Positions 3 to 48,121 of a DNA stretch of 64,000 nucleotides are shown here, in pieces. The DNA comes from an uncultured Pseudomonadota bacterium (lineage in GTDB: Bacteria > Oederibacteriota > Muellerivitia > Muellerivitales > Muellerivitaceae): positions 224,001 through 288,000 of the forward strand of contig CAWJKT010000004.1 in assembly GCA_963843375.1 (NCBI GenBank). The letters run 5' to 3'. The position numbers and the translations under genes are program-made. The notes beneath the pieces were generated by a model. The model was not told where the DNA came from. It ran no database searches and was given only the letters and a program-made list of their open reading frames with translations. The number at the start of each line of letters is the position of its first letter. Position 1 is the stretch's first letter.

Positions 3-1134
3 GGAGTTGTCTTATACAACACGCCAAAGGAAGGTTTTCAATGGACCCTGGATAATTTTTTCACGCCTGTGTTCCTTGCCGGTTCTCTTTTCGCAGGGGC
101 GGGAGTGGCGGCCATTTGCCGGTGGTTCTCGAGAAAGGAAATGTCCCGACTTAGCCTCCCTCACACTGAGTGCCGCCTGCCTGGGCTTGGCTTTGATGCC
201 GTTGGCATTGAATTACGGAGCCAACGACCAAAGCGACTATACCGTTTCCTACGATGAGGGGCTAAATATGCTCAAGACCGCCAGCCGTAACGGGGTGATC
301 CTGTGCAACGGGGATATCGACATTCTTCCTTTATGGTACCTGCAGTTCGTGGAGGGAAAAAGGCCCGAGGTGGCGAGTTTCACCACCATGTTGGTGGGTC
401 TTCAATGGTACCGCGACGATATTTTCCGCCAGTGGCCCTCCCTCCAGACCGCCCTTCAAGGCGACGGGCCTTCCGATACGGTCGTGGAGGATATGATCCA
501 GGCCCACGGTTCCCAGCGGCCCTTTTACGTCACCAATATTTTTATCCAGGGTGCGGCCTGGCTTGGGAAGGACCATCTCATGGTTCCCGACGGCCTTTTG
601 TGGCGTCTGGCCGATACTCAGGGACAAAATTTTGCCTTCAACTCGGCACGGCTCAACCAGCTCTGGTCCAACTATGACCTGCGCAACCTGGGCCCCCCGA
701 AAGGAAAATACTGGGACGATTACACCGACGTCATGAAGGATTCCTACGGCCAGGCTTGTTCCTTTACCGGCGATGTGGCCATGAGAACCCAAAACCCGCA
801 ACTGGCCCAATGGAGCTATGAGAAAGCCTTGGAATATCACCAGCCCCAGCAAAGGGGAGTGACCTACCTAAGCCTGGCGGACGCCGAAATGGCGATGAGC
901 CGCCCCGTTGACGCTGTTTCCCACTATCAGCAGGCCTTTCGTTCCGGTCTCCCCCAGGCCTATGCCCCCTTTGTCTACGCCCGATTGGGGAATGCCTTTC
1001 TGATGGAAAAGGATTTTGTAAATGCGGAGGATGCCTTTCATTTATCCCTGCGGCTCAATCCCCAGCAGAAAGAGGCGTTGGACGGCTTGCGGCAATTGGA
1101 CCAACTCCGGGGAGAATCAAATCCCCGTTCTTGA
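3..1134 (+). CDS. C-terminal part of a DUF2723/TMEM260-like membrane glycosyltransferase with C-terminal TPRs; 5'-truncated by the window edge, apparent +1 frameshift near 135-150
   Basis: Frame 3 from base 3 reads GVVLYNTPKEGFQWTLDNFFTPVFLAGSLFAGAGVAAICRWF (TM segment). Frame 1 continues LALMPLALNYGANDQS...NGDIDILPLWYLQFVEGKRPEV, followed by TPR-like helices (YARLGNAFLMEKDFVNAEDAFHLSLRLNP). Confidence 0.65.
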   Translation, partial: ELSYTTRQRKVFNGPWIIFSRLCSLPVLFSQGREWRPFAGGSRERKCPDLASLTLSAACLGLALMPLALNYGANDQSDYTVSYDEGLNMLKTASRNGVILCNGDIDILPLWYLQFVEGKRPEVASFTTMLVGLQWYRDDIFRQWPSLQTALQGDGPSDTVVEDMIQAHGSQRPFYVTNIFIQGAAWLGKDHLMVPDGLLWRLADTQGQNFAFNSARLNQLWSNYDLRNLGPPKGKYWDDYTDVMKDSYGQACSFTGDVAMRTQNPQLAQWSYEKALEYHQPQQRGVTYLSLADAEMAMSRPVDAVSHYQQAFRSGLPQAYAPFVYARLGNAFLMEKDFVNAEDAFHLSLRLNPQQKEALDGLRQLDQLRGESNPRS

Positions 1135-12346: not shown

Positions 12347-12463
12347 GGCCTTCCAACACCACAATCCTTGTTCGTTGATAAGACCAATCCTCTCCGATAA
12401 GATGGTTTTCCTTTTATTGATTTGGCGTGCTCCATTTTCTTCCAGGCGGCTAAGGCGAACGGT

Positions 12464-31454: not shown

Positions 31455-31483
31455 TTGACTAATAAAACCAGGGGGTGGATAAT
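31455..31483 (+). promoter_or_regulatory. putative sigma70 promoter of the pilin-like operon
   Basis: TTGACT-17 bp-GATAAT, about 110 bp upstream of ATG 31593. Confidence 0.5.
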
Positions 31484-31592
31484 CAACACGGGTAGGTTTT
31501 TATAATGTTTCCCGCCGGAGTTGCCGCTCCCCCGTTTTTCCTTATTTCATGCTAAAATTCAGCTGAAAAACATCGATTTTGGAGCGGCGTCT

Positions 31593-32573
31593 ATGGGTCA
31601 TATATCGTTGCAATCTAAGCTTTCACGATTCGCCAATGCCTTTGGGCAGTTCTTGGGTGTTTCCTCTCATTCCACCGAGCGGTTTCCTTTTTCCAAAATT
31701 CAAGATTCCCGGGGTTCCGCTCTGGTGATGGCGGCTATTTTCATGCTAGTGGCCTCGGTGCTCATCACGGTGGGTGTCAAGCTGGTCGCTAACGCTTCCC
31801 GTGGTGCCAAGGAAAAAGAACTCTACGTCGGCGAGGCGGAAAACGTGGCAAGAGCGGGGCTCATCGACGCGCTCGCCTGGTTCCGCAGGCAAGCCGGCAA
31901 CGGCGGTGTCGTCAGCGCTTACACGGGAGGCGCGGCAGTGCCGGGGCAATCGTCCGTCACTTGGGCAATCAACCCCGATATCAAGGTTCCTCCCTCGCCC
32001 ACGCCCACCCCCACGAGCTACACTTATACCTACGTGGACGAAGCTTTCAATCCTCAAGGCAATACTACCGATCCCCAGCTTGCGGACACCATCGCGGCTA
32101 GTATTGGCCTCGTCGGCGAATATCCCTTGAGCGATCCTGTGACGGCTAACTGTCTTTATTGGGCGAGGTTCGAGGTGCCCAAACAGGGCGCTGGCGCCAT
32201 GGCCACGACTGCGGTCCACGACATTACCGGGGAACGAACCGGCGACGTGAACGGCGACGGGTTCGTCTGGTCCATCCAGTCGACGGGTTACGTTTATAAA
32301 AGATTGGATAAAAGAGTCGACATCTACGGCAACTGGATCGTCCCTTATAATTCAGCCCCCAACACCGTTGTGGCTAAGGCCGAATTTTCCACCGAGTTAA
32401 GAAAATTAGGTTTGAACCTGCCCGTGCCCACACCCGGTCCTAGCGTTTATTCATCGGGGCTTTACGTATACAACGCGGGCCAGTGCGTTACCCTCACATC
32501 CGGTGAAAGCCTCCTGGACGGGGCGGTGTCCCAAATCGATACCTTCGGAGTGATCGGGCTATCGAGCCCTTAG
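31593..32573 (+). CDS. PilX/GspK-like minor pilin, N-terminal part
   Basis: Class III-type leader SRG|SALVMAAIFMLVASVLITVG lacking Glu5 (typical of PilX/GspK), then EAENVARAGL and WSIQSTGYV. Confidence 0.7.
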   Translation: MGHISLQSKLSRFANAFGQFLGVSSHSTERFPFSKIQDSRGSALVMAAIFMLVASVLITVGVKLVANASRGAKEKELYVGEAENVARAGLIDALAWFRRQAGNGGVVSAYTGGAAVPGQSSVTWAINPDIKVPPSPTPTPTSYTYTYVDEAFNPQGNTTDPQLADTIAASIGLVGEYPLSDPVTANCLYWARFEVPKQGAGAMATTAVHDITGERTGDVNGDGFVWSIQSTGYVYKRLDKRVDIYGNWIVPYNSAPNTVVAKAEFSTELRKLGLNLPVPTPGPSVYSSGLYVYNAGQCVTLTSGESLLDGAVSQIDTFGVIGLSSP

Positions 32574-32637
32574 GGGGAACGAAGGGGGAAAGCAAAAGCC
32601 GCGCGAAACGAGTTGAATTTTTCAAGGGGGTCGAGAG

Positions 32638-34605
32638 ATGAGGGTTCGGGTCAAAAAAATTTTTCGGAAGGTCTTTGCTTTGGGGTTCCTGAAGCCATGG
32701 CTTCTCCTTGTCCTGGCCCTGTTTTTACTGACCCAAGTTTCCTATGCCGCTCCTACTTCCACTCCCAGCAAAACCCCGACCAGCACCATCACTGAAACCT
32801 TCACGAAGACTGCGACCAGCACTATCACCCAAACCTTAACTCAGACCCCAACCAGCACTTACACGAATACCGCGACCAGTACCATCACCGAAACCTTAAC
32901 GAAAACCGCGACCAACACTTTCACCAATACTGCGACCAGCACCATTACCCAAACCTTAACCCAAACCCCGACCAATACCCCTACGACTACCCCGACCAGC
33001 ACCATCACCGAAACCTTAACGAAAACCGCGACCAGTACCGCGACCAATACCATCACCCAAACCTTAACGCAAACCCCGACCAACACACCCTCGAATACCA
33101 CGACCAGCACCATCACCCAAACCTTAACGCAAACCCCGACCAATACCGCGACCAATACCATCACCCAAACATTGACGAAAACCGCGACCAGTACCGCGAC
33201 CAATACAATCACCCAAACTTTAACGCAAACCCCGACCAACACACCCTCGAATACCACGACCAGCACCATCACCCAAACCTTAACGCAAACCCCGACCAAT
33301 ACCGCGACCAATACCATCACCCAAACATTGACGAAAACCGCGACTAGTACGACCACTCCCACTTTCACCTATACTCCAACCCTCACCCAAACCAATAGTG
33401 TGACGAGTTCACCGACCTATACAGCCACCCCAACGGCAACTAATACCATCACCCAAACCTTAACGAAAACTCAGACCAATAGCCCGACCTATACCACCAC
33501 AAGAACGGCAACCTTTACCATCACTGAAACTTTAACTACTACCGCGACCAATTCCCCGACCCCGACTAAGACCTTTACCGCGACCAATTCCCCGACCTTG
33601 ACTAAGACCTTTACCACGACCAATACCCCCACTAAAACGGCTTCTTACACCACCACCTTTACTCAGACCAAAACAGACACCAATTCCCCGACCGTTACCC
33701 TGACCTTTACCACCACCAAAACTACGACAGCAACCCCGTCCTTTACCCCCAGCGGGACACCTACCAATACCCCATGTTTCGTTATTCTTCACGGGATCGA
33801 AGTCCTCTGCACCAATACGCCCGGGATACCCACAAATACCTTTACTCCCTACATTACCCCCACCCCCACCATTACCAATACTTTCACCAATACCTATACC
33901 TTCACCAATTCCCCGACCATCACCAATACCCCCACTCCCTGTTACGTCACCAATAGCGGTGGGGCGACGGTTCTTTGTTCCTGCGATGAGCCCCAAAACG
34001 CTAATGCGGGCGACTTCCAGGGTGGGGTCACCTGCTTCAACGGTCCCGCCTCTCTCCTGACTTCGGAAAGCGTCTTCGGGATGAACCTGGCCGACGTCAA
34101 AAATGTCGCCGACTATATCGGCAGTTCCTCCAATGGGACCTCCATTGTCCTGGATATCACCTCCGATTGGAAACTCTCCTATTTCGATGGACCGGTCACC
34201 TATGGCCCTGATCAGCCCTTTCCCTATACCACCTTGGGCGCTCCCAAAACCGACACCACCCCGCAGACAAGCGGCTTCGGTATCCTGGTTGTCAACGGCG
34301 ACTTGACCTTGCAGGAAGGCAGCGGAAGCACCCTACCCAGTTCCTGGGGCGGTGTGATTTATTGCACTGGTAACCTAACCGTGGGGGGCGGGTGCGTCAT
34401 CACCGGGGCGGTCATCATGGGAATTCCCGATTCCAACGCGGCGGACGGCAACTACGGAACCATCACCCTTACCGGAAGCGCGGGTAATTTCGGACAGGTT
34501 ATCTATAGCCCCACCCTGGTGACGACGGCCGAGGAACTGGTGGGCGTTTACCGGGAAGATATCAGTGAAACGAAAAAGCTGCTGGCGATTCCCTTTTCCC
34601 AATAA
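32638..34605 (+). CDS. secreted protein: signal peptide, ~400-aa (Thr-X)n stalk and PilX-like C-terminal beta domain
   Basis: Sec signal ending VSYA; Thr at alternate positions over 32752-33939; C-terminal VFGMNLADVKNVAD...GILVVNGDLTL...GGVIYCTGNLTV...GAVI...YRE. Confidence 0.75.
   Translation: MRVRVKKIFRKVFALGFLKPWLLLVLALFLLTQVSYAAPTSTPSKTPTSTITETFTKTATSTITQTLTQTPTSTYTNTATSTITETLTKTATNTFTNTATSTITQTLTQTPTNTPTTTPTSTITETLTKTATSTATNTITQTLTQTPTNTPSNTTTSTITQTLTQTPTNTATNTITQTLTKTATSTATNTITQTLTQTPTNTPSNTTTSTITQTLTQTPTNTATNTITQTLTKTATSTTTPTFTYTPTLTQTNSVTSSPTYTATPTATNTITQTLTKTQTNSPTYTTTRTATFTITETLTTTATNSPTPTKTFTATNSPTLTKTFTTTNTPTKTASYTTTFTQTKTDTNSPTVTLTFTTTKTTTATPSFTPSGTPTNTPCFVILHGIEVLCTNTPGIPTNTFTPYITPTPTITNTFTNTYTFTNSPTITNTPTPCYVTNSGGATVLCSCDEPQNANAGDFQGGVTCFNGPASLLTSESVFGMNLADVKNVADYIGSSSNGTSIVLDITSDWKLSYFDGPVTYGPDQPFPYTTLGAPKTDTTPQTSGFGILVVNGDLTLQEGSGSTLPSSWGGVIYCTGNLTVGGGCVITGAVIMGIPDSNAADGNYGTITLTGSAGNFGQVIYSPTLVTTAEELVGVYREDISETKKLLAIPFSQ
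33019..33350 (+). repeat. near-perfect 156-bp (52-aa) tandem duplication inside the Thr-rich coding repeat
   Basis: Unit TKTATSTATNTITQTLTQTPTNTPSNTTTSTITQTLTQTPTNTATNTITQTL starts at 33019 and 33175, with a partial third copy at 33331. Shorter ACCATCACCCAAACCTTAAC sub-repeats occur throughout. Confidence 0.9.
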
Positions 34606-34628
34606 GGAAAGCCGAAGGGTCTAAACAA

Positions 34629-37600
34629 ATGAGCGTGAAAAAACTTTCCCAAGCCGGGTTCAATCTGGTGGAACTGATGATCGCCGTGGGCATTCTTGCG
34701 GGGCTCTCTTCCGCCGTAATGATGGCCCGGTCCTACATGGCCAAACAAACGGTCAGCACCAACGACAAGGCTTATGCCACCCAAAAAGCCATCCAAATGT
34801 TCGAGGAACTCAAGGCCCTGGTGAATGGCAGCGAGAACTCGGTTAATGTTTTGGACAACTACAGCGACGGAACCAATTACAACCCCATTCTCACCACCGA
34901 TACCACCGTGAACAATGGCGTCACCGCCAACGCGGGGAACGCCTTGAGCGGAAACAAGCCCACACAAGGCGGCGCCTGGCGCTACCTACGGCAGATCCAG
35001 GTCAACCATGTGGCCAACGACGCCTACACCCGCCAGATCATCATCAAAGTTTGGCTCTACCAGTCGGACGCCAATCCCACCCTGCCCGGTACGCTCCTGT
35101 CCGAAATCGGGGGCAACCTGAGGACCATCGCCAGCACTTTCCCCCCCACACAGGTCATGGATGTTTACGTGCTGGCCATCAATAACATCGCCGGATGGTG
35201 GGCCCATGAGCCGGTCCTTTACCAGACCTTCCAAAGCATCATCAACGATATCCAAGGCCGGAACCCGGGGTTTGCCATCCGGCCCCACTATATCACTCGC
35301 ACTTCCTATGGGCGCGACAGCCAATACTTGCCTTACATCAATATTTATCCCTATAACACCGACGGAAATAACGACGCCACCGGCTCTCTCGTCACCACCT
35401 CCACCACGATCGGAAATATGCCTTTCGTTTACATGTATCCCGGCTATACCTACGAGGACGCCGCCGATGGCAGCGTGAGCGACTGCTTTTACGATCCGGG
35501 GCAGTCTCAGGACATCCCCCTGGGGGTTTGCCTGGACGGGAATTTCGACGTGGGGGGTTCCTACGACGATACCAGCCTGCAATTCACCAACTGTCCCAAT
35601 TACACCGTGGCGGACATGTATAACAACAGCATGCGTTACCCCGACGAACTGGCCATGTACCAGGCCGTCACCTCGGCCGCCTCCAGTGCCGTCCCCGCCG
35701 TCCCCGCCCAGGATTCGGTCACTGAAATCAGCTGGCGCATGTTGATGGAAGGAATGCTGGACGAACCCCAATCCTTCACCAACGCCCTCATCGTCAACCT
35801 TCACGGCGAACTTTGTCCCCTTCCGCCCATGCGTAATTATTCGGACCCCGCCAAGGACCCTGGCAGCCTGGACAACGCCAACGACACTAACATCCGAGTC
35901 GTCACCCACCCGCAAATGCTCTATTACCCCGGCAATTCAACAACCAGCGCAAATGTTGGGGTCACCCTCAATGTTTACGCCTATTACGACGGAATGGACG
36001 CCGCAGTCTCCCTGGACAGCCTCTACTCCCCGGTCAACGATCCTAAAACCAACATCAGTCTGTTCTTTCCCGACCTCAATACCGGCGCCAGCATCTTGGG
36101 GGTGACCGCCATCATCGGCAATTCGAGCCAGGCCTCGACTGTGGCTCCCGCCACGGGCCCCGTCACCTATCAATATGACGCCTTCACCATTCCAACCGGA
36201 GGATCGGGCAGCACACCTGGTATTTATAATGGAAGCCTTGCGGACGGAACCAACATCACGGGTCAGGGTCCCGTGAGCGTTGGCGTCAGTTACGTGGGGG
36301 CCAATAAGCAAATGCTCATCACCCTTTACAATACCCGTTTGCGCTGTCCTAGCGGACCCTCCACGTCGGTCGCGGCGAATGGCGCCACAATTGGCGGTTT
36401 GAACATCTTTGACCGTTTATACGGCTTGGAATATATCCCCTGCAGCCCAGACATGAGTTCCCTGACCAGTCCCGTTACTTTTACCAAGCAGGATTTGACC
36501 GATCCCGCTGCAAACGGAACGCCCAAAAATACCGCCCGTTGGCTGGTCAGCCTTTCCGTGCCTGTCACCTCAGGATTCCCCTTTGTCACCGCTGCCACCC
36601 CCTTAACGATCCAAAACGCAAGCGGCATACCCCAGATTTATGACAAACCCGTCACTTTCATTGGGCAACACACTATTGAGACCCGCATCGGCGCTGCGGT
36701 GACTTCCAACGGAGCCCCCAGCAACCTTTCCCGCACTTACCTATGGACCGGCTGGTCGGCCGTTGCGGACGAGGGATCGTCCTATGTCACCACGGGAACA
36801 TTCCCCCCGACCACCGAACAATACCAATTCCTGGGCGACCCTCGGCATGAACCTTACCTGGACGTCAAAGTCGGTGGCATCAATAACGGTCAAGCCGTCG
36901 TCATCCAGAAAAATGGCTACAACTGGTATTTCAAGGATGGGGCGAGGCCCACGACGGGCGTGCCGGTCGCCAACTCGGTGGGGATGAACAATGACGGTTA
37001 TGTCAGTTTCGGAATCGCGGGGGACACCAGCGGATCACTGCAAAACGGCCCCGGCACCCGGTATGGGGGCTGGTGGGGCGCCGATGGCAATTTCGTGGAC
37101 CTCCCCCGGTTCCACTCCATGGTCATGAATGGCCTTTTAAACGCCACCGGGGTCTGGACCACCATGAACGGTTGGACCTATTACTATTATGGAATGGGGG
37201 GAGAATTTGGGAGCGACCAGCCGCCCTTCCAGAATGGCATCACTATTAATGCATCCCTTTACAGCACCACGGCCAACGCCGCCGTCGACTACGTTTCTGA
37301 GATCATTCCATATACCGATGGGGGCGCGGCCTCTATCACCTCCTTGCACCTGCCCGCCAATACCCAACAAACCTGGTACGCGAAGACTTGGCTGGGGGAA
37401 CTTTATCCCGACAGCATGTACACCGCTTGGAGTTTTTACGGAAACCTTCCCTCGGCAAATATCGGGGGGCCTTCGAAGTTCACTTTTTACCGGGAGGATT
37501 TTGGAAGCATCCCCACCACCCTTTACAGCGGAACCGTGACTGTTTCCTACGGCAACGGAAATTCCCTGACCGGGTTTGGGCGCCAAGTCACCAACCGTGC

Positions 37601-38663
37601 CGGCGCGAACGGCTGTTCGTCTTTCTATAACGGTTCTGCCAACGGCTCCGGAACGGATAATACCTTTAACCATGAAGGGACGGGTGACACGGATTCCACC
37701 ACCAGCATGGCCGCTTCCTGTTTCAACATTTTTCAATATCCCCTTCCGGTGGAAGTAGTCAACTCATCCGGGCGTCCTTGGGCGTTGAATCAAGGGAACT
37801 ACCCTCCCCAATGGAATATCGCCCCCTATTCCACCCATAACACGCTGACCGTTCCAGAGGTCAACGGGACGTCACGCGTTTTTTATACCACCTCCGCGGG
37901 TTCACCCTGGACTGGCACGGGTGTGGTCCAGATCACGAATCCCAACGGCCTCGCCAATGGAGAGCCCGTCACCCAGGTCGCCTATGTGGTGGAATCGGGA
38001 TTGTCCATTTCCGCCCAAGTGGGGACCTCCGATCTGGGTGAAACGGCATTGGTGGCCCTACTCAGGACCTTTTTGGACGGGGGAAATTACGCGAGCCCCG
38101 GCCATATCACCCAAGTTCCCCTAATCGAATGTTATGTCGACAGCCCCACCAACCAGTATTACCAGCCCTCCGTTATCAACGTGATCGTGGATGGGGCTGT
38201 GACGACGGGGACCGCCACTTCGGTCACTCTCGTCGGCGGCGCTGTTACAACGCTCAGTACCGGGCCCACCAACAACATTTGGTACCGTTATCCGGGGCTC
38301 ACGTCCAGCACCGCCAATTTTTACACCGAGGAATATCCCGGTTATCCCACCCTTGCCAGCAGTACCTATGTCGAAACCGGCGGTAGCGGCACAACTCCCA
38401 TCAATCTGGACATGAACTTCAAGTATTCCACGGACAGCGGGAATACATGGTTGTTCATGAATAATAACGGACCAGCCACCTTCGGTGTCTTGGATTCCAG
38501 CGCCGACGGCAATTTGTACACCAGTAATAGTTTTCCCTACAGTTTCGCCTGGAACGTGAATAGCTTCCCCCAGGGGAATTATGAAATCATGGTGGAAGCT
38601 TACCGGCAAAATATGCCCCTGGATTACGCCTACCATATTCTTACGGTCACAATCGACCAATGA
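34629..38663 (+). CDS. giant (1344 aa) type IV prepilin-motif protein: PilV-like N-terminus plus a large extracellular region
   Basis: QAG|FNLVELMIAVGILAGL N-methylation motif; AYATQKAIQMFEELK helix; C-terminal Ig-like segment FAWNVNSFPQGNYEIMVEAY. Confidence 0.8.
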   Translation: MSVKKLSQAGFNLVELMIAVGILAGLSSAVMMARSYMAKQTVSTNDKAYATQKAIQMFEELKALVNGSENSVNVLDNYSDGTNYNPILTTDTTVNNGVTANAGNALSGNKPTQGGAWRYLRQIQVNHVANDAYTRQIIIKVWLYQSDANPTLPGTLLSEIGGNLRTIASTFPPTQVMDVYVLAINNIAGWWAHEPVLYQTFQSIINDIQGRNPGFAIRPHYITRTSYGRDSQYLPYINIYPYNTDGNNDATGSLVTTSTTIGNMPFVYMYPGYTYEDAADGSVSDCFYDPGQSQDIPLGVCLDGNFDVGGSYDDTSLQFTNCPNYTVADMYNNSMRYPDELAMYQAVTSAASSAVPAVPAQDSVTEISWRMLMEGMLDEPQSFTNALIVNLHGELCPLPPMRNYSDPAKDPGSLDNANDTNIRVVTHPQMLYYPGNSTTSANVGVTLNVYAYYDGMDAAVSLDSLYSPVNDPKTNISLFFPDLNTGASILGVTAIIGNSSQASTVAPATGPVTYQYDAFTIPTGGSGSTPGIYNGSLADGTNITGQGPVSVGVSYVGANKQMLITLYNTRLRCPSGPSTSVAANGATIGGLNIFDRLYGLEYIPCSPDMSSLTSPVTFTKQDLTDPAANGTPKNTARWLVSLSVPVTSGFPFVTAATPLTIQNASGIPQIYDKPVTFIGQHTIETRIGAAVTSNGAPSNLSRTYLWTGWSAVADEGSSYVTTGTFPPTTEQYQFLGDPRHEPYLDVKVGGINNGQAVVIQKNGYNWYFKDGARPTTGVPVANSVGMNNDGYVSFGIAGDTSGSLQNGPGTRYGGWWGADGNFVDLPRFHSMVMNGLLNATGVWTTMNGWTYYYYGMGGEFGSDQPPFQNGITINASLYSTTANAAVDYVSEIIPYTDGGAASITSLHLPANTQQTWYAKTWLGELYPDSMYTAWSFYGNLPSANIGGPSKFTFYREDFGSIPTTLYSGTVTVSYGNGNSLTGFGRQVTNRAGANGCSSFYNGSANGSGTDNTFNHEGTGDTDSTTSMAASCFNIFQYPLPVEVVNSSGRPWALNQGNYPPQWNIAPYSTHNTLTVPEVNGTSRVFYTTSAGSPWTGTGVVQITNPNGLANGEPVTQVAYVVESGLSISAQVGTSDLGETALVALLRTFLDGGNYASPGHITQVPLIECYVDSPTNQYYQPSVINVIVDGAVTTGTATSVTLVGGAVTTLSTGPTNNIWYRYPGLTSSTANFYTEEYPGYPTLASSTYVETGGSGTTPINLDMNFKYSTDSGNTWLFMNNNGPATFGVLDSSADGNLYTSNSFPYSFAWNVNSFPQGNYEIMVEAYRQNMPLDYAYHILTVTIDQ

Positions 38664-39856
38664 GGCCCGGCATGGAACAACCCTTTAACCTCTACTCGCC
38701 CCCTAGGAGCCACTCCCAGCATTCCAATGAGAAAGGATTTACCCTGATCGAGCTAATGATCGTGACGGCTTTGATCGCTATTATCACCCCGGCGATTACC
38801 TATCTTTTCAGCAAGGTCAGTCAAGGCATGGCCGCCGATGAAATGCATCTCCAACTGCAAGCTTTGAACGAACAGACCATGTTGCGCATGCACGAAAAGC
38901 TGATCACCGGCCGCCACCTATTCCAAAATGATTCCTCGGGTGCTTCCTTTTTAGGGGCTGTGACCGCGGGCATGTCGGCCAACACTCTCGCTCAATATCC
39001 GATTCTTCCCGGAACCAAACTGGCCACGGACTTTCCGGCCAGCATCACCACCTCCTTTTCCCCATCCACTGTGGTCGCGCCTTATTTCGGCAACAGTATC
39101 CTGGTCGGGGGCTACGATACGCCCCAGACATTCGGTACCTTGATTTATAACGCCCCAGCCACGGCCTACTACACCACGACCGGCAACAGCTATGTGACTT
39201 ACGGGGCCGCCAATGGGAGCGGGCCAGCCACACAGATCATTGACCTTTACCGTTTTACCTACTATTACTTGACCGCCAATAACCCCAGAGGCCTGCGCAA
39301 CACGGCCAGTTATGGGCTGGTGGAATGGCAGAGTGTCCAATATGCGGACTATAACGAGATCAATGAATTGTTGTCCATTGATCCGGTTCTTTGCTCAAAT
39401 GTCATCACCTGGCTGGAAACCCCCGGCAACGTCTCGCCCAATGACCCCACCTACGCGGTCACTTGGGCCTGGGATCCTACTCAATACAGCCCTGCGCCCA
39501 CTTCCACGACGGCCGGTTTTTACACCTTCAGCGGCGGCGTAGCCAGTCCGGTCTGGCCCGTGGCCATCCAGGAAGGCTATGTCACCTATCTGACCCATGT
39601 TTCCTCCGGGCTTTTGAGCAACGGCTTTTTTTATGGGATCAGCCCCAACAGTTCCATTTGGCAAGGCGTCCCGAAAGCGGTCCCTGAATACGCAAATGCG
39701 TCCGGAAGTTTCCCCGGTGGGTTCGAAACGGGGATATCCGGAAACGCCGCCGGAACAGAAGTGATGATCCGGTCTCTCCTTGTGGCTCAGGGCGCCGCTC
39801 CCCGGGTTGTCTGGAACGATCAGACGATGGTCAACAACGTCCGAGATGTTTGGTAA
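38660..39856 (+). CDS. type IV prepilin-motif protein (PilW/GspJ-like, 398 aa)
   Basis: EKG|FTLIELMIVTALIAII; overlaps the upstream stop (ATGA). Confidence 0.82.
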   Translation: MRPGMEQPFNLYSPPRSHSQHSNEKGFTLIELMIVTALIAIITPAITYLFSKVSQGMAADEMHLQLQALNEQTMLRMHEKLITGRHLFQNDSSGASFLGAVTAGMSANTLAQYPILPGTKLATDFPASITTSFSPSTVVAPYFGNSILVGGYDTPQTFGTLIYNAPATAYYTTTGNSYVTYGAANGSGPATQIIDLYRFTYYYLTANNPRGLRNTASYGLVEWQSVQYADYNEINELLSIDPVLCSNVITWLETPGNVSPNDPTYAVTWAWDPTQYSPAPTSTTAGFYTFSGGVASPVWPVAIQEGYVTYLTHVSSGLLSNGFFYGISPNSSIWQGVPKAVPEYANASGSFPGGFETGISGNAAGTEVMIRSLLVAQGAAPRVVWNDQTMVNNVRDVW

Positions 39857-40155
39857 GGGGGAAGTGAAAACTCCAAAAGAAAGTTGAAAAAATAGCTGTA
39901 AAACCATGAATGGTTGGAAGTTGTTCATCTCTGGGCTTGTTACTTGAAAGTAACGGCCAAAATCAAATAATCGGATGGCGATAATGCTTTGGTTTCGGGT
40001 GAACAGCCTGAGATTGGGCATTGGCCCCTCTCGTCCCGGCTAGGGCTGGACCCCGCGCTAATTAATATATTAAAGATAAAATCTACATACGAAGGGCGCA
40101 CCACGCGCAAAACCCTTTTCTTGATTACCCTTAAAAATAAGGATATTCTTAACCG

Positions 40156-43100
40156 ATGGATTCAAAACTAATGGAAAAACTTCTCCTCAATCCTAACCGT
40201 TTAACCTTCTTTTCTATCTTTACGCTGTTAGCTTTCCTTCTGTTTCCTTTTCAAGCCTTAGCTACCGATACTTTTAATTTTGTGGTTCCTCCCACCTCTG
40301 CTTATGCGGGAGTGACCTATCAGGTAAACAGCGCGGTGACCTTCAACGTCCAGGCTCTGAACGGCGCGTCTGTGGATAATTCGTTCAACGACGTGGTGAC
40401 GGTGGGGCTCTACAACACCGCCACGAGCCAGTTGGCCGATCCCCAGGCTGTTTTTGTCCCTAGTGGTTATGCGCCCGTCGTCGGTGCGACCGCTCCCATG
40501 ACATTCCAAAATGGCCTTTTGAATTTCGGCGTCACCCTGACCGCCGGGTGCAATTCCATGCAGGTCAGCATCCAGGACGCCTCCGTCACCGCCTCTACCG
40601 CCACTTATCCCGGAGCTATCGGGAACACCTCGGGACCGGGATACGTGGTGGAGGGCTTTTTCCAATCCTATTTTCTCGCAGCCTCGAGTGGAACTACCAT
40701 CCCCGCCCAATATCCACCCAACACGGATCTGCTCCTGACCAGCCCGGTGACCAATTCCAATTACGCGGTAACCGTCATCTCGGGCAGCAGCGTCACCAAT
40801 TCTCTTTGTTTCGCCGTGACAGGGGTGACAGGGGGATATGCGGGGTTGAACGCTGGGGTAGCGGCACATTTTGAGGCTTTCAAGGACGTAAACGCCACCG
40901 CCGCAGTCAGCTATGAAGTGATACTGGATTACAACGGCACCCTGGCGGATTACAACAACCCGGACCTAACCCCGGGGGACCCCAACGAAGACACGGTTTA
41001 TTTCGGGTCAGTTCCCAACATCGCGGAAAGTTATAGCCTCGTCTCCGGATTTTCCTCTACTACTGGTGCTGCCCCCGCCACCTACATGAACAACGGCCAG
41101 GTGATCGTGCGCTTTTGGACCAGCGCCCCAGTCACCAACACGGTCAACCTCCAATGGTCCTCCAACGAGGGTATTCTTTCCTATATCAACGTTCCTTATT
41201 CCAATAGCAACGTCCAACCGGTGACGGCCGGCATGAGCCCCTCCATCATCGAGGACAGCGTCTCCACCCCCGTGACCTACACCATCAACAACCAATATTC
41301 CCTGCCCATCACTTACCTGACCATTCAAATACCCACGAACAATCCCTCGGGTTCAGGAACACCCTTTAGCGTCAGCGTGCCCAGCTCCGTTCCCGGCCTT
41401 CCCGGCAGCAGCCTGGGCGTTTCCCAAGCCACCAACACAACCACCGGGGCCATCACATTGATTTCCGCTTCGAACCCGATCACTGTCAACCAAGTGGTTC
41501 AGATTCCTTTAACCATCACCTGTTCTAGTCAAACCAACAGCGCCTGGGACTTTCCCCTCCTGTCGGTTTTGTCCAACACGGGCCTAGCCGTGCCCTCTGT
41601 TTCGGGCGGGGCGGTCATTGCCTCCGAGGCCCCGCCTCCGGCGCCTTCGTCCTTTACGGCTTCGGTGATCCCCTACATCAACAGCGGCGGGGGAAGCGTG
41701 AGTCTCAACTGGAGCCAGGTGACGGCCCAGACCAACCTGGGTTACGTCCTCAGCCGCAGTCCAACCCCTGCGACAGGGGCCTTTTCTGCTTCCGTCACAC
41801 TTCCCAACGGAACAATTGTCCCCAACGCGGTGACCTTCACCCCCAATACCACCCTGGGTTACATTGACTCTGCGGTGACCAACCTGACGGCTTACACCTA
41901 CAATCTTACGGCTTATAACGCAGTGGCCCAATCGACGCCGGTCACTACCGCCTCCGCCACGCCTTACGCCAATCCCGGACCGCCCTCCAGTGTTCAAGCC
42001 TTGACCGGAGGAACCACTATTGAACTCAATTGGGCGACACCTGTTGCCGTGCCTGGCTCTTATCCCGTGACGGGATACCAAATTTACCGGGGAACCTCTT
42101 CGGGGGGGAAAGCGGGACTCCCATCGCCCAAGTGGGGCTAGTGACCACTTTCAAGGATACGACCGTCAGTGCGGGGACGAATTATTATTATTATCTTTCC
42201 AGCATGGACAATCTTTACAGCGGTGGAGCGCCACTGGGCGCCCACGACAGCGGGCCTTCTTCTGAAGTCTCCGGTTATCCCAACGGCTGGCCCCCCACGG
42301 GACTCATCTCCAACCTGGTTTCACCCAGCCCGGCCACCATCGGTCTGAGTTGGACGGCACCTAGTTCAACACTGGTTTTGAACCAACCGATAGAGAATTA
42401 TCTGATTTATAAGGCACTGGCCCCTGGTGCCCCGGTTTATTATGCTTCGGTCGGCAGCAATGCCACGACCTTCGCGGATAGCACGGGCTTAGTGCAGGGC
42501 GACAGTTATATCTATCAAGTGGCGGCGATAGACAGCCAAGGGGTGACCTCCAACCTTTCAGGACCTGTCACTGAATCGGACGGGGCCTCGGCTCCCACGG
42601 GCCTCACCGCATCCCCCTCCGGAAGCGGCATCACTCTTACTTGGTCGGCCAACCCGGTAGCCCAAGGGGTCACCCAATACGGGGTCTACCAAAACGGAGT
42701 TTCCATTGGAAGTACGGCTGGTGTCAGTTTTCTGGTTTCGGCCGCGACCGCCGTCCAGGGCCAAAATGATATCTATACTTTGAACGCAATCGCACAAGGA
42801 TTTACGTCGCTTTTTTCAGCCCCCGTCACCTCGGCCCTGTTTCCGGTGGGGGAAACAGGCTTTACGGTGGCCTCGGCCTTGAACCCCAATACAACTGTCA
42901 ACCTTAGCTGGGCGACACTGATTGCGGGCAACGCCAACGCGACCGGTTACAATATTTATCGCAACCCTACAAGCAACAGCTACCCCTCAGGGGCCGTGGC
43001 CGTGACTCTGGGTATGGCCGTGACGGCGGCGGGGAACCCGGTGACTTCACTTCAGGACCTGGGACTCTCAGCGGGGACCACTTATTTTTATTTCCTCCAG

Positions 43101-46100
43101 GCCGTTAATCCCTCTGGTGTGGGGCCGGTCACCGAACAAGCCCTTCAAATCCCGCCTAACCCGCCGGGAACTCCTACGGTGACTTCATCCACCAGCGCCG
43201 TGACCCTCACTTGGACGGCCAACAGCGCCAGCCAGAACGTTTCCCAATACACCATCTACCGTTCCCAATTGCCCTCGGGAACACCCGTGGCCGTGGGGAC
43301 GGCTACCCCTGGAACCGCCACCAGTTTCACCGACATCGGCCCCTTGACCCAGGGCGTTAGCTATGTTTACGACCTGACGGCTACAAATCCTGGTGGGGGT
43401 GCGGGCATACCTGGCGGGGTCAGCCAGCCTTCCGCCTCTGTCACATGGGGTTTGTTGCCATTGGCTTCCACGGGCTTGGCGATTACGGGAATTACCCAGT
43501 CCAACAATATCTCCGTCACCTGGACCAACGTGACGACAGCCGACCCCAATGCCAGCGCCGTCTCGATTTTTGTCAATACTAACCACGCATCTCCCAACGG
43601 CGGAACCACTGTTAATATCACGCCAGTTTCAAGCCTGGGCGTTACCGATACGGGCTTCTTGAGCGGTGTCAGCGGGGAAGCGCCGGATACTTCCTATTAT
43701 TACTGGCTCCAGGTGACTGATCCATTTGGGGCGAGCGCCTACGAGGGCCCTGTCACTCAATTGACCTACCCCGGCGCCGTTAATCTGTCGCCGGTAACGC
43801 TGGCTTCGGACGGAGTTTCCCGAATTCTGGAATGGACCACCCTTCCCTCCGACGTGACTGGCTATACGGTCACCCAGGTAGGCGGAGGAGTTACCCTCAC
43901 CCAAGCTTATCCCGCTAGCGCTGCAGGAGCGCCGGTGACCCTGACCCTCGCCACCCAGCCGGGAGTGGCCTATATCTATACCGTTACGGCTACGAACGCC
44001 ACTGGCACGGGCCCGGCCTCTAATTCACAAACCTTCAGTTCACTCCCTTCCTCTCCGGTGAGTGTGACAGCGATTTCGGGCACGAGCAACACGGGAGTCA
44101 CCGTGGTCATTTCCTGGTCGGCCCCGGTTTCCGCTTCCCAAGAAGGGGTCACGGCTTATTCGGTTTACCGGGCCACGGCCTTGGCCGGACCCTACATGGC
44201 AGTGGTTTCGGGGCTCACAGCCCCTCTCACTTATGCCGATTCGGGCGCAGCTGTAACCGGGTTGGGCGTTTATTACTATATCGTCGTGTCGGATGACAAC
44301 ATGGGCCAACAGAGCCCGGTGACGTCTGTCGACGCTGTGCCGGTAACGGCCTTCGCCCTGCCCAACCCGCCTGGGACGCCGAACGACGTTCCCGCCAACA
44401 GTTCCGTTACTTTAACCTGGACCCCGGGTTCGGCCACCACCTATCCGGTTTCCATTTATGACATCAGCCGTGTAAACGCGGGGGTTACCACGGTCATACC
44501 AACCGCCGCAGTGACTTTCGACGACACTACCGTGCTGAATGGAATGACCTATGTCTACTTCCTCCAAACTGTGGATAGCCAGGGCAACCTGAGCCCCGCG
44601 ACCTTGCCCGTGACCGTGACGCCATTAAATACCCCCGGCCCTCCTCAAAACCTGGGCGTTGGGGTGGGGGATCAGGAACTATTATTGACATGGAAAGCGG
44701 GAACGGCTGGAACCCTGCCTATCGGCAGTTACCTCATCTATCCGATTACAATTACGGGCACGGGCCCGATGACCGCTTCCGCCCCGGTTTCCGTCAGTTC
44801 AACCTTGACGGGATATTTGGACACCGGATTAATGGATGGGGTCACTTATAGTTTTTACATGCAATCGGTCGATACGACCGGGGTCACCACGGGTTTGGAT
44901 ATCAGTCCTCCCTCGGCTTTGGTTTCGGGAGTTCCTGTTTCCCTTACCGCAAACCCCCCGAGCAATTTGGCCGCCACCGGGGGTGTCTCCCAAGTAATTC
45001 TCTCCTGGACGGATTCAGTTACGGTAATTGGCGGAACCAATGTCACGGGTTACAACATTTACCGAAGCACCGCACCTAATTTCTCCAGTCCCACGACCTT
45101 GGCGTTCGTATCCGCTCCTGGAGGCGGTGTCACCGCCCAGGCCGTCACCGATACGGGCCTGATTAATGACACAACTTATTACTATTACATGACCGCCTCG
45201 GCCCCTGGAACGGTCAGCGCCGATAGCGCCACTGTGTTCGGTATTCCTGCGGTGCCGCCCGCGGCCCCAGCGACCTTGATCGTCACGGCCGGAAACCAGC
45301 AGGTTCTAATCGATTGGCCTCCATCCTCCCCGGTGGTCGGAGCCCTTCCCGTTTCTTTCTATATAGTCACCATCAACGGTGCTCCGGTTACGGTGCCCGC
45401 GACCCAAACTTGGTATTTGGATTCTGGCTTGACTAATCCGACTCCGGTCACGGTCACAATTCAGGCCATGGATTCTCTGGGGGTTACCACCGGAAACAAC
45501 GCCAGTACGATCGTAGGCCCTCTTTCGGCCACCACCAGCGGCTCGGACTTGAACCCTCCTAACGCCTTGACCGCAGCCGTCACGGGAACGAACTCCATCA
45601 AACTCACCTGGGGGCCCCCCAACGCCGATGGTTATCCCGTCACGGCCTATAACCTCTACCGCGCCACCACTTTCACCACCAGTTTCCTTAGCCCCTTAGC
45701 CACCCTTTCTAATAGTTCTCCTGTTACTTCCTATCTCGATACCAACCTCGCGGCCAATACCACCTACTATTACGTTCTTCAGGCAATGTATTCCTCCGGG
45801 CCCGGCGGGGCTGTCTCGTTGGAAAGCCCTTATTCTAATCACGCTGAAGCGACCACTCCCGCCCCGAGTGCGGCCGTGCCGCCGGTCACCCTGGGAGTGA
45901 TGGCCTTCGATGCCAATGTCTTGAAGCCCCTGACGGGCCAGCAACTAGGGATTTATTTCGTGGCTCCCGAAAGCGGGCCGGTGGAACTGGACATTTATAA
46001 TATTTCGGCCCATCCCATCCGGGCACTTTATGCCACGGCCATCGCAAACATAACTGTTAGTTTGACGTGGGACGGCAAGGACCGTGAGGGTAGTTGGGTC

Positions 46101-46175
46101 GCCTCCGGGGTTTACCTAATTGAAATCAAGGCCCCAGGTCTGCACCAGATCAAGAAAGTGCTGGTGGTTAAGTAA
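40156..46175 (+). CDS. ~2000-aa secreted multi-FN3 protein with a C-terminal FlgD-Ig/T9SS-like domain; -1 frameshift at G7 (42102-42108)
   Basis: Signal peptide ending QALA. About 14 FN3 repeats (P..P..L.A....V.L.W...Y.IYR...D......YYY) span ORFs 40156..42141 and 42030..46175; one FN3 is split exactly at the G run (YRGTSSGG|ESGTPIAQV). C-terminal VELDIYNISAHPIRAL...WDGKDREGSWVASGVYLIEIK...KKVLVVK. Confidence 0.8.
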
Positions 46176-48121
46176 TGATCGAAAAAGAAAGCCCTGAGTC
46201 CTTCTTTTTGAGCCCTCAGTTGCTAAGAATTTTCAATTTCAAAGTTCAAATTGAGAATTCCCTTCGCCGCCTAAATTCCGCCGTCAGTTCCTTCTTGCTC
46301 GCTTCCTGTTTGATATTGGGACTACAGGTGGCGGCACAGGCCCAACAGCTCACCAGTGGCGCGGATTTCCTTACCATCGACAGCGGCGCCCGCAGCGAGG
46401 GCATGGGCGAGGCTTTCACCGCAATGGCCGATGACGTGACGGCCCTCACCTGGAATCCGGCGGGCATTGCGCTTTTAAGCCGCCCCCAAGTGGGCTATCT
46501 CCACCTGCTTTACCTGAACAGTATCGGCTACAATTTCGGCGGGGTGGTAGTGCCCCTTCCCGCGGGCGAAGACACCTTCGGGCTCGGCGCAGGGCTGGTC
46601 AACCTGGGGACCGGCAGTTTCGACAGCACCTTGGGGCTGGCCCCGGCGGTTTCCGCTGGGGATAACGCCTTTTTGCTTTCCCTTGCTTACCGCGTGAAAA
46701 GGATTATTTCCTTCGGGGTGACGGCCAAGTACATCCAGGAAGAGCTAGCCGGGTACAACGCCTCCGCTTTCGCGGGCGACGCGGGCGTGCTTTTCACCCC
46801 CGGTGACCGGGTTAGAATCGGACTGGGAGTATTTGATTTCGGACAAGAAGTCCAGTTTATTTCCGCCGCTGATCCCCTTCCTTTCAGTGGCCGGTTGGGC
46901 TTGGCCTGGAAGATCCTTGACCTTCCCCGTCACACCCTGACGCTGTCCGCCGATAACGGTTGGGAATTTACCACCCAAACCTACACCGGCGCGGCGGGGG
47001 CTGAATATTGGTTCGACCGGATACTGGCTTTGCGGGCGGGGTTCACGGGCGACTCCTACCAACAGCATCCCACCGCCGGCGTGGGAATTAATGTGGACCC
47101 GGTTGAGTTCGATTACGCCTTTTCGCCCCAGGGCACCCTGGGCGACACCCACCGGTTTTCCCTTGTGCTGAGTTTCGGCAATGAGGCTGTGGAAGGATTG
47201 ATAGCGCCCACGGGCTTTAACGCCATTTCGTCGGATGGGTCCATCTCTCTTCATTGGAAGCCCGTTCCTTCCAACTTGGTCGTGGGTTATAACGTCTACG
47301 TCAAAAAGCCCAATACCGATAGCATGTTGCTGGTCACGAAAAGGCCCTTGGGCATCGGTGAATTATCGGTTCGGTTGAACCATCTAGTGAACGGACAAAC
47401 CTATACTTTTGGTTTGGCCTCGGTTAGCGCGGCGGGAAGCGAAAGCTCCCTGGTGACCCTGACGGCGGTGCCAAGCGCGGTGGTGGCGGCAGCGCCCTCA
47501 CCCACTCCCGTTTTCCCGGCACCCACCGGCTTCAAGGCGACCGCCACAGCGGAGGGTTTCAACCTGACTTGGGATAAAGCCCTCTCTTCCGACGTGACGG
47601 GTTTTTATCTTTACCTCGTCGGCGATCCCGGCACGCCGGTTAAAAAAATATCACCCACCCAGATCACGGATAATATCATCATCCTTAAAAAGGTGAATCC
47701 GGACAAAACCTACCAGTTCCTTTTAACCGCCGTGAACAAAGCCGAAACGGAGAGCGCGGCGGCGACCCTCACCGCGAATTTCACCGAATTGAAAAAGGCC
47801 CAACTGGCCGCCCAGTATCCTCCGCCCGCTCACTTAGCCCTTCTGGTGAATGCCGCTAAAGTCACCCTGAGCTGGAATAACGGAGGGGCGGGGATGAAAT
47901 ATAATGTTTACGTTTCCCACGATGGGGTTAGTTACAAGCTTTTGACCCCCACCGGCACCCTCAAGACTCAAGCTGTATTAGGTCCGCTGAAGCCCAGTAC
48001 CGTTTATTATTTTGGTGTTACCGCTTTGTATCCCGATGGTAAGGAAAGCGATAAGTCCCTTCAGCAATTAACCACGCCCGCTCCCGTCGCAAATGAGACC
48101 CCGACCCCCAATCCAGGTTGA
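46175..48121 (+). CDS. PorV/PorQ-family outer-membrane beta-barrel fused to three FN3 domains
   Basis: GADFLTIDSGARSEGMGEAFTAMADDVTALTWNPAG; barrel end FDYAFSPQGTLGDTHRFSL; then 3 FN3 repeats. Translationally coupled (TAATG). Confidence 0.82.
   Translation: MIEKESPESFFLSPQLLRIFNFKVQIENSLRRLNSAVSSFLLASCLILGLQVAAQAQQLTSGADFLTIDSGARSEGMGEAFTAMADDVTALTWNPAGIALLSRPQVGYLHLLYLNSIGYNFGGVVVPLPAGEDTFGLGAGLVNLGTGSFDSTLGLAPAVSAGDNAFLLSLAYRVKRIISFGVTAKYIQEELAGYNASAFAGDAGVLFTPGDRVRIGLGVFDFGQEVQFISAADPLPFSGRLGLAWKILDLPRHTLTLSADNGWEFTTQTYTGAAGAEYWFDRILALRAGFTGDSYQQHPTAGVGINVDPVEFDYAFSPQGTLGDTHRFSLVLSFGNEAVEGLIAPTGFNAISSDGSISLHWKPVPSNLVVGYNVYVKKPNTDSMLLVTKRPLGIGELSVRLNHLVNGQTYTFGLASVSAAGSESSLVTLTAVPSAVVAAAPSPTPVFPAPTGFKATATAEGFNLTWDKALSSDVTGFYLYLVGDPGTPVKKISPTQITDNIIILKKVNPDKTYQFLLTAVNKAETESAAATLTANFTELKKAQLAAQYPPPAHLALLVNAAKVTLSWNNGGAGMKYNVYVSHDGVSYKLLTPTGTLKTQAVLGPLKPSTVYYFGVTALYPDGKESDKSLQQLTTPAPVANETPTPNPG

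Follow-up and report, generated by a model that had tools for sequence, protein, structure and literature searches.

What stands at the tip of a type IV pilus whose minor pilins are encoded with no recognizable PilY1 adhesin, and do a secreted fibronectin type III (FN3) protein and an outer-membrane barrel encoded directly behind those pilins belong to the same machine? Both questions are raised by an array of six genes on the plus strand of a 64,000-nucleotide stretch of DNA (hereafter the window; positions 224,001 to 288,000 of contig CAWJKT010000004.1, assembly GCA_963843375.1), whose host belongs to candidate division FCPU426. The open reading frames (ORFs) of 326, 655, 1344, 398, 661 plus 1381, and 648 residues encode, in order, the two parts of a PilX/GspK-type pilin (K), a giant PilV/GspI-type prepilin (I), a PilW/GspJ-type prepilin (J), the FN3-repeat protein (the cargo), and a barrel of the PorV/PorQ family. 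The initial annotation described co-oriented genes with two overlapping pairs, and so they lie: pilV and pilW share ATGA, and the cargo and barrel genes share TAATG. The reading that we consider probable is one of two modules, namely the tip complex of a type IVa pilus in which a split K pilin acts much as PilY1 does, and beside it a separable cargo–barrel pair. Each part works like a known kind, be it the I/J/K tip, the ComZ-type K, strand donation of the PilY1 type, or the cargo with its cognate shuttle. Two things are new: a K pilin split in nature, whose unsplit sisters still exist, and a family of giant I pilins that carries no annotation.

A PilX pilin carried on two reading frames

A terminal β-strand completes the sheet of K and licenses pilus assembly, and it is supplied either in trans, by PilC/PilY1, or in cis, by K itself (PMC13533445). 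The same source describes the mechanism as experimentally shown for PilC/PilY1 and CpaL and its trans form as predicted for MshQ, gives GspK, ComZ, and CpaL as cis donors, names Thermus among the systems with a large insertion ahead of the donor strand, and leaves the origin of the trans arrangement as an open question. Two solenoid-bearing K pilins, Thermus ComZ (PDB 6QVI; PMC6561018) and the cyanobacterial solenoid PilX (PMC13759059), have been proposed as PilY1 substitutes or caps.

The first two ORFs had been taken for a PilX-like gene lacking Glu5 and a separate gene for a secreted Thr-stalk protein. The former description holds; the latter has to be replaced, as the 655-residue protein is the collinear C-terminal half of PilX. 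Together the two halves align end to end with a 480-residue single-ORF orthologue, L055 (44% and 45% identity), of which the Thr-stalk ORF covers residues 275-480. The N-terminal half begins with a class III-like leader that ends in G41 before SALVM, continues with the helix and the sheet of a pilin, then the opening strands of a β-solenoid, and stops without the last pilin strand. Its position +5 is Met, and M, L, I, W, and V are the five commonest residues there among 70 orthologues. The C-terminal half opens with a predicted signal peptide (~1-37) and a Thr-rich stalk of tandem repeats (38-378; 341 residues, 49% Thr), while its distal part carries the rest of the β-solenoid (~448-625) and then the conserved terminal strand. 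It has no Pfam match, and its C-terminal 208 residues map to solenoid and last strand, so it is not a β-propeller. A search with the PilY1 family PF05567 gave no match in the one genome and in the 41 genomes scanned, where the controls were silent as well.

The fold of the undivided protein is predicted by the L055 model (predicted local distance difference test, pLDDT, 90.8), whose best Foldseek match is ComZ (6qvi, E 4.4e-6). In the model, the pilin domain is followed by the solenoid (219-451), a helix, and the last strand (463-475). The solenoid resembles the DUF3494 ice-binding type (VIA Z 11.9, root-mean-square deviation (rmsd) 3.5, 173 aligned). The GspK chain, over 29..315, aligns with model residues 31..475 (VIA Z 6.9, rmsd 2.8, 104 aligned); GspK and XcpX reach L055 residue 475 at their chain ends, and the I-type pilins XcpV and Thermus PilA2 stop near 222. 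The terminal strand is well conserved, with a Tyr in 66/70 and an Arg in 57/70 aligned orthologues.

PilX is present in 26 of 79 genomes of the phylum, split in 11, a single ORF in 13, and of uncertain state in two. All split forms belong to the family of the window's host and break at one shared profile position just inside the solenoid, with an intergenic distance of −4 to 68 bp. A sequencing error is ruled out by these 11 genomes, by the shared break point, and by contigs that span the stop: codon 32571-32573 is unchanged in independent contigs of runs X2 and X4. Because each of the 57 full-length PilX matches from loci outside the family is a single ORF, the fused form is the older state and the split is derived. 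What the second halves have gained varies, the passengers being Thr-rich stalks, Cys-rich β domains, or a lectin-like or DUF1349-like domain. What they retain is constant, in that the tails are 33-77% identical and keep the terminal motif. All nine second halves tabulated (G016 and G063 stand outside this table) begin with a hydrophobic segment and a cleavage-like site ending in Ala/Ser, with no prepilin motif, as judged from hydropathy and by eye. The fused orthologue of G009 has an insertion of ~160 residues at the split site and is possibly an intermediate between fused and split. A profile of the tail alone, among its 150 best representatives, recovered 99 full fused pilins, 14 partial ones, and 37 proteins lacking the N-terminal domain; six of these 37 are stand-alone proteins of 369-866 residues led by a signal peptide and bearing the tail of the family, and the others look like contig fragments. 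Whether PilX is split or fused does not track the presence of the cargo–barrel pair.

An N-terminal half with neither the last strand nor a full solenoid needs a second protein to complete both, and from the alignments the C-terminal half probably supplies the terminal strand in trans, although it is not a homologue of PilY1. The sequence of events might have been as follows. The ancestral K would have been a ComZ-like pilin, with its solenoid between the penultimate and last strands and the “licensing” strand provided in cis. In part of the family the gene would have split at a fixed point; the first half remained a prepilin, and the second, retaining solenoid and terminal strand, would have acquired a Sec signal peptide along with a passenger that can be exchanged. 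Once exported, the second half would re-join the pilin half, complete the solenoid, and add its strand in trans, which would let K combine with J and the giant I subunit and thereby display the passenger at the pilus tip. The logic of PilC/PilY1 would thus have been reached independently, by gene fission. Its likeliest task would be adhesion to surfaces, in which the extra domains of the giant I pilin would also take part.

Two other views of the split K bear on this scheme. The split might be a matter of decay or release, the pilin half standing alone or non-working and the second protein now being an independent secreted or periplasmic one, a view that the free variation of the passenger regions between genomes would suit, as would the cassette of G064 (L205), which an unrelated ORF cuts after the first half of K. 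We regard this as highly improbable, as the halves are adjacent and intact in nine or more of the 11 genomes with a split (further breaks occur in G010 and G063, whose assemblies are indel-prone), the conserved tail and terminal motif persist across the split forms, and no CTD-like tail (C-terminal domain) is present on the second protein to direct it to another export route. Alternatively, the assembly could be just as proposed and its job DNA uptake, as in Thermus, rather than adhesion. The closest structure is after all that of a DNA-binding competence pilin, ComZ (PMC6561018); ComEC is found in four of the five family genomes searched, and there are several PilT-type ATPases. Adhesion is nevertheless favored over ComZ-like DNA binding by the acidic surfaces, which make uptake unlikely: the isoelectric point (pI) is 4.7 for the N-terminal half, 4.4 for PilV, and 4.05 for the solenoid tail (6 K/R vs 20 D/E), and the median net charge among 70 fused orthologues is −3. 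This argument is one of bulk charge, the conserved DNA-binding lysines of ComZ being a separate criterion. The passengers, moreover, are Thr-rich stalks or a DUF1349-like domain, and cyanobacterial solenoid PilX proteins serve competence or adhesion (PMC13759059). PilT-family ATPases lie in open frames of ~780 residues (644 in G017) at G000:C15:70853 in the window's own genome (G000) and in its counterparts in G001, G003, G009, G013, and G017; tandem PilT pairs occur as well in four of the five relatives searched.

The giant PilV, PilW, and the pilus of the host

The prepilin calls for the 1344- and 398-residue proteins hold (TIGR02532, 19.2 and 25.9 bits; cut-off 16.3), with Glu at +5 in 112 of 114 PilV rows and invariant in the PilW alignment. 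Pfam and NCBIfam recognize these prepilin motifs, fn3 and FlgD_ig in the cargo, and the PorV family with fn3 in the barrel; beyond the prepilin motif, searches of Pfam, NCBIfam, and PDB sequences returned no family for PilV, PilX, or the N-terminus of the cargo. The architecture of PilV was mapped from a model of P0008, a 51% identical homologue (pLDDT 87.7; predicted template modeling score, pTM, 0.83). It comprises a pilin domain (~11-165), a GATase-like/Rossmann scaffold (~177-1152) with an inserted adhesin-like β domain (~407-725), and an Ig/FN3-like domain (~1162-1344). In the homologue model, the pilin domain (model 38-165) matches XcpV (VIA Z 8.0, rmsd 2.9, 88/89 aligned), GspI (Z 7.7), and EpsI (Z 7.2). 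The scaffold resembles GH42/ThuA-type domains (best Z 10.1, rmsd 3.6, 194 aligned), the inserted domain resembles the Gram-positive CppA/FimP/SdrD pilin and adhesin domains (Z ~7), and the C-terminal domain resembles RbmA (Z 8.1). The pilin match alone covers its whole target; the other fold matches are middling and indicate no function, and as the domains were folded as one chain, assignments at Z 7-10 may reflect common arrangements. Foldseek with the whole PilV model gave no meaningful match, and the ESM Atlas held no usable match for residues 165-1344 of PilV and met PilW with unnamed N_methyl clusters only.

The initial annotation had placed the adhesin inside the giant pilin. Its large extra domains, some of adhesin-like fold, agree with part of that claim, while the Thr-stalk ORF is the likelier counterpart of PilY1; most plausibly it is this C-terminal half of K that fills the role of the “missing PilY1,” not the giant pilin alone.

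A scan of GTDB genomes for relatives of PilV gave 337 matching stretches, spread over several phyla, from which 79 loci were kept for a census of the trio. PilW follows PilV in 74 of these, with all five misses at contig ends, and PilX is found in 74, where all misses but one are at contig ends. The hosts include FCPU426, Elusimicrobiota, Acidobacteriota, Planctomycetota, and others. The cassette defines an unannotated family of I-type pilins of 1000-1500 residues. PilW is assigned as J by elimination. A 189-residue PilV-like pilin, 41% identical over 157 residues to the PilV pilin domain, is encoded at G000:C2:22617-23186 (L159:6618-7187, minus strand); such a short copy, which exists in 8 of 31 family genomes, could serve as an I subunit without the head, alternative to the giant one. 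In Elusimicrobiota (L071, L073, L074, L124, L119), the trio is present in several copies per genome; L071 and L074 have a second PilV-like gene directly 3′ of pilW, and L119 has extra X/W-like genes upstream.

No pilB, pilC, pilD, or pilQ family occurs among the 40 window proteins scanned, and the expectation that assembly machinery for this K/I/J-type tip set lies elsewhere proved right. On another contig, the host genome (G000) has a pilB-T-C-A-M-N-O-P-Q cluster of type IVa without minor pilins; it also has a cluster resembling a type II secretion system (T2SS) with pseudopilins of its own, and a prepilin peptidase. In the 99% complete genome G003, the N_methyl model matches PilV, PilW, and two major-type pilins and nothing else, and the second secretin belongs to a Tad-like cluster (read from ORF starts). 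With PilV and PilW as the sole non-major N_methyl pilins there, the trio is most simply the core tip (initiation) minor-pilin set of the type IVa pilus of the genome.

The T2SS-like cluster invites a different assignment, in which what the trio primes is not a surface pilus but a short pseudopilus in the periplasm. The heads (~1150 residues on I, a solenoid on K, 350 residues on J) may exceed what passes a secretin, a second secretin/ATPase cluster of this kind is present in both G000 and G001, and the pilin domains are closest to the T2SS pseudopilins GspI and GspK. It is very unlikely all the same: the cluster has three GFxxxE pilins and a K-like gene of its own, G003 has the trio and no such cluster, and two pilus components, ComZ and Thermus PilA2, likewise resemble GspK and GspI (PMC6561018).

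The cargo–barrel pair and its place behind the pilins

The FN3 protein, described at first as one of some 2000 residues, is assembled as two ORFs (661 and 1381 residues) offset at a run of seven G at 42101-42107; in the same-genus genome G001 it is one ORF of 2008 residues. The extra G appears in contigs of three of four public runs, and the fourth, at a depth of 30.9, shows none. Two real genes are ruled out by the single ORF of G001 and the extra G of the three runs. The frameshift is likely an assembly indel, a reading supported by the similar fragmentation of sprA and its neighbor in G000, though phase variation is possible. The protein consists of an unannotated N-terminal region, ~14 FN3-like repeats (counted by motif spacing in the G001 orthologue), and a FlgD-Ig/CTD-like tail. 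That tail, too, had been noted; its FlgD_ig match falls slightly under the cut-off in the window (22.6 vs 27) and exceeds it in G001 (32.7 vs 27), where the CTD model TIGR04183 scores 19.8 bits vs 23. The barrel was correctly recognized as PorV/PorQ-like with FN3 domains (NF033709, 157.9 bits vs a cut-off of 90; three fn3 stretches), and it stays below the equivalog cut-offs for PorV and PorQ (PorV, 55.2 vs 250).

PorV-like barrels are present in all 41 genomes searched, and G000 holds 35 FlgD_ig and seven UPF0164/PorV-like matches. At 32 of 32 loci, picked as best matches rather than at random, a CTD-ended gene stands directly 5′ of a related full-length barrel (20/20 and 12/12), and the cargo at this place ranges from 164 to more than 5000 residues. 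The barrel would accordingly be the cognate carrier of the cargo. Exported by Sec, the FN3 protein would be recognized through its CTD-like tail and retained on the surface by a PorV-FN3 barrel of its own, as one of many private pairs on a SprA/PorV route resembling type IX secretion (the T9SS), and would be dispensable for the pilus. The smallest cargos, of 164-177 residues, are a signal peptide and CTD only (L163:16958-17491 in G078 and L167:7217-7711 in G079, each 5′ of a PorV-FN3 barrel); their relatives have proteins of 3000-5000 residues or more at that place. A genome check for T9SS core genes found a SprA homologue (226.6 bits in G001 vs a cut-off of 200), with matches in 39 of 41 genomes, above the cut-off in two. 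GldM and GldN were found in none of five genomes, in which the controls were likewise silent; GldK and GldL lay outside this search. The sprA gene at G000:C15:110180-115440 (L156) and in G001:C1 (L157) adjoins skp-lpxD-lpxC-fabZ-lpxA-lpxI-lptFG (read from ORF starts); a 1545-residue gene follows it in G001, and in G000 sprA and this neighbor lie in several frameshifted pieces.

Is the pair part of the pilus? The initial annotation linked the pilin set genetically to a dedicated barrel and cargo; the dedicated pair stands, and the linkage is partial. Among 21 family genomes, the cargo gene directly follows pilW in 12 (G000, G001, G005, G006, G009, G012, G018, G020, G021, G022, G024, G065), at a distance of 24-506 bp (299 bp in the window), and the trio occurs with no cargo behind pilW in nine (G002, G003, G007, G010, G013, G019, G023, G063, G085). 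The count excludes genomes whose contig ends before the region behind pilW. Excluded from the linkage tally are G016, whose barrel contig (L042-L043) looks chimeric upstream, and G004, whose cargo starts at a contig edge. Presence of the pair differs within genera g2 and g10, and a cargo query found no match anywhere in G002, G003, G010, and G013, which are 98-99% complete. Most of the nine genomes without the pair have, behind pilW, the same cyclase-domain gene as stands 3′ of the barrel in the window. Outside the family, the pair is nearby in none of 63 loci, some of which have short flanks. As the trio is kept without the pair in 9/21 and 63/63 cases, the pilus does not need it. The gene so shared encodes, at 48555-50420 of the window, a protein with DUF5939 and an adenylate/guanylate cyclase domain, and is a conserved downstream neighbor with or without the pair.

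Several points weigh against the two-module reading and its split, PilY1-like K. A prediction of the complex between the N-terminal half and the last 40 residues of the C-terminal half lends no more than weak support, with a score of 0.39 against 0.00 for the best control and no interface given; contacts agree between runs to at least 53%, and the pLDDT of the partner is at least 50. Of the solved complexes, 116 of 157 reach the mark applied, as do 2 of the 215 mismatches; with a score no higher than 0.60, it is attained by just 18 of the 157 and by both mismatches. Halves of a split gene can pass through likeness to ComZ. The second halves carry what appears to be a Sec signal peptide on the strength of hydropathy rather than a dedicated predictor. 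The Thr-rich stalk ends in no evident adhesin domain, which makes adhesion by the passenger of the window uncertain. In a profile search, PilW matches solved pilins in the N-terminal helix only. The cassette order in the window and the surveyed loci is K-I-J and not the usual I-J-K (K is inverted in L128). A tree of the fission requires three changes, and as a single split clade is not rejected (approximately unbiased test, p-AU 0.24), one fission is not distinguished from several and re-fusion is possible. The window genome is 80% complete and indel-prone. Finally, as to full independence of the modules, 14 copies of the window's cargo family are known, 13 of them with a visible upstream gene, and in 13/13 this gene belongs to a pilin cassette, so that some link between pilin and cargo may exist.

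It is this last observation that could suggest one coupled machine, in which the FN3 protein is the surface partner of the pilus or the pilus motor drives a SprA/PorV route lacking GldLM. Three unrelated cassette types precede the window's cargo family. In G017, the cargo lies behind two V-W-X cassettes without BLAST similarity to the window trio, and G029, of another family, has a V-W-X cassette, then a distant 1835-residue CTD cargo, then a PorV-FN3 barrel, repeating the order of pilin, cargo, and barrel. In G032 (L052:5827-11173), a TodX-like barrel and two tandem MshEN-PilB ATPases lie directly 3′ of an FN3 cargo/PorV-FN3 pair. Such coupling is decidedly unlikely given the nine family genomes with the trio alone, the four nearly complete ones with no cargo match, the absence of a pair near any of the 63 outside loci, the lack of a pilin cassette at 13 of the 15 additional barrel loci that show the gene upstream of the cargo, and the retention of SprA in 39/41 genomes regardless. 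Flanking housekeeping genes are syntenic as well, so inherited adjacency explains most of the copies. A bolder form would have a type IVa pilus that bears at its tip a PilY1 analogue born by gene fission, together with a giant I pilin, work with a motor-less SprA/PorV route, the FN3 cargo being its surface partner or pilus dynamics the energy source that replaces GldLM; to this we attach very little probability, and were it true, the coupling would have left its trace in the genome as the repeated position of the cargo family 3′ of three unrelated pilin cassettes. For the two modules taken as separable, an old neighborhood with cassette exchange explains the linkage; functional coupling, for which gene order alone speaks, is possible. 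In a PorV tree, the pilin-linked barrels do not all group together. The other large V-W-X cassettes, of two families (L044:12162-17198 and L045:14701-19095 in G017, L149:1-6728 in G029) encode I-type proteins of 726-908 residues and K-type proteins of 520-1080 residues, with two-component genes upstream and CTD cargo and PorV-FN3 barrel downstream.

Relation to described systems and features of the locus

Like ComZ and the solenoid PilX, the K described here lacks Glu5 and bears an ice-binding-like solenoid before its last strand, with domains grafted on in some lineages. Unlike ComZ, it shows no sequence-level match, places solenoid and last strand on a separate signal-peptide protein (two ORFs here, as in 10 further genomes), and has a 1344-residue multi-domain protein as its partner I pilin. 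The second half in turn resembles PilC/PilY1, and MshQ with PilIJK (PMC13533445), in being a predicted Sec-exported non-pilin with variable N-terminal modules encoded next to K, with an extreme C-terminus that would serve to complete the sheet of K in trans. It departs from PilY1 in having neither a β-propeller nor a PF05567 match, in having once been the C-terminal half of K, which sister genomes still encode unsplit, and in the position of its gene between K and I, not after I-J-K. Grafting of adhesive domains (here adhesin-like) on a pilin recalls Streptococcus sanguinis PilB/PilC, and a stick and head made as two proteins recalls the two-part Geobacter pilin (PMC10191384). In the present case, however, the graft sits on a diderm I-type core pilin, measures ~1150 residues, and belongs to no known family, and the split affects the solenoid and last strand of the tip K, not the whole head of a major pilin. 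The succession of cargo and own barrel, the many pairs, and a SprA encoded elsewhere have their parallel in type B CTD cargo with PorP/SprF in the Bacteroidota T9SS (PMC12618676), from which the pair differs by its PorV/PorQ-family barrel with three FN3 domains, by a host outside Bacteroidota, and by a tail that scores as FlgD-Ig and only weakly as type A CTD.

A search of the literature, with subscription journals mostly and supplements outside its coverage, found no description of FCPU426 pili, a split PilX, or a giant PilV; Dataset S1 and figures in PMC13533445, and the structure clusters in the supplement of PMC13759059, likewise beyond that coverage, are where related cases might be found. 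The value of the locus is that the cis and trans states of one gene coexist in sister genomes, with a fixed break, a gained signal peptide, and swapped passengers. If the halves do re-associate, it would represent a natural conversion from cis to trans and a route for the birth of non-pilin tip adhesins. Pairs of cargo and private PorV together with SprA are, in addition, documented well outside Bacteroidota.

Table 1. Coordinates of the array (positions count from the first nucleotide of the window)
Feature	Position	Strand	Basis or remark
Candidate promoter, TTGACT-17-GATAAT	31455..31483	+	5′ of pilin cassette; consensus scan, 10/12 matches; number of such sites over the region equals chance
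PilX/K N-terminal half, 326 aa	31593..32573	+	44% identity to L055 residues 1-262
PilX/K C-terminal half, 655 aa	32638..34605	+	45% identity to L055 residues 275-480
Putative donor strand C-beta, residues 638-650 of second half	34549..34587	+	aligned to L055 model strand 463-475
Giant PilV/GspI-type prepilin, 1344 aa	34629..38663	+	TIGR02532; model of homologue P0008
PilW/GspJ-type prepilin, 398 aa	38660..39856	+	N_methyl, TIGR02532; J by elimination
299-bp gap, likely module boundary	39857..40155	+	promoter-like TTGAAA-16-AATAAT at 39944-39971
Secreted FN3-repeat cargo, ~2006 aa if one frame	40156..46175	+	fn3, FlgD_ig; broken at G7 run 42101-42107
PorV/PorQ-family outer-membrane barrel with three C-terminal FN3, 648 aa	46175..48121	+	NF033709

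The gap between the two halves of the array, first described as 300 bp with a possible promoter, is there and does contain a promoter-like site, but such sites occur at chance frequency: scans for promoter-like sites (10 vs 9.6 ± 3.1 expected) and for terminators over the region are both at chance level. Elsewhere in the window, positions 12422-16867 encode a histidine kinase of 1481 residues with about nine PAS domains.

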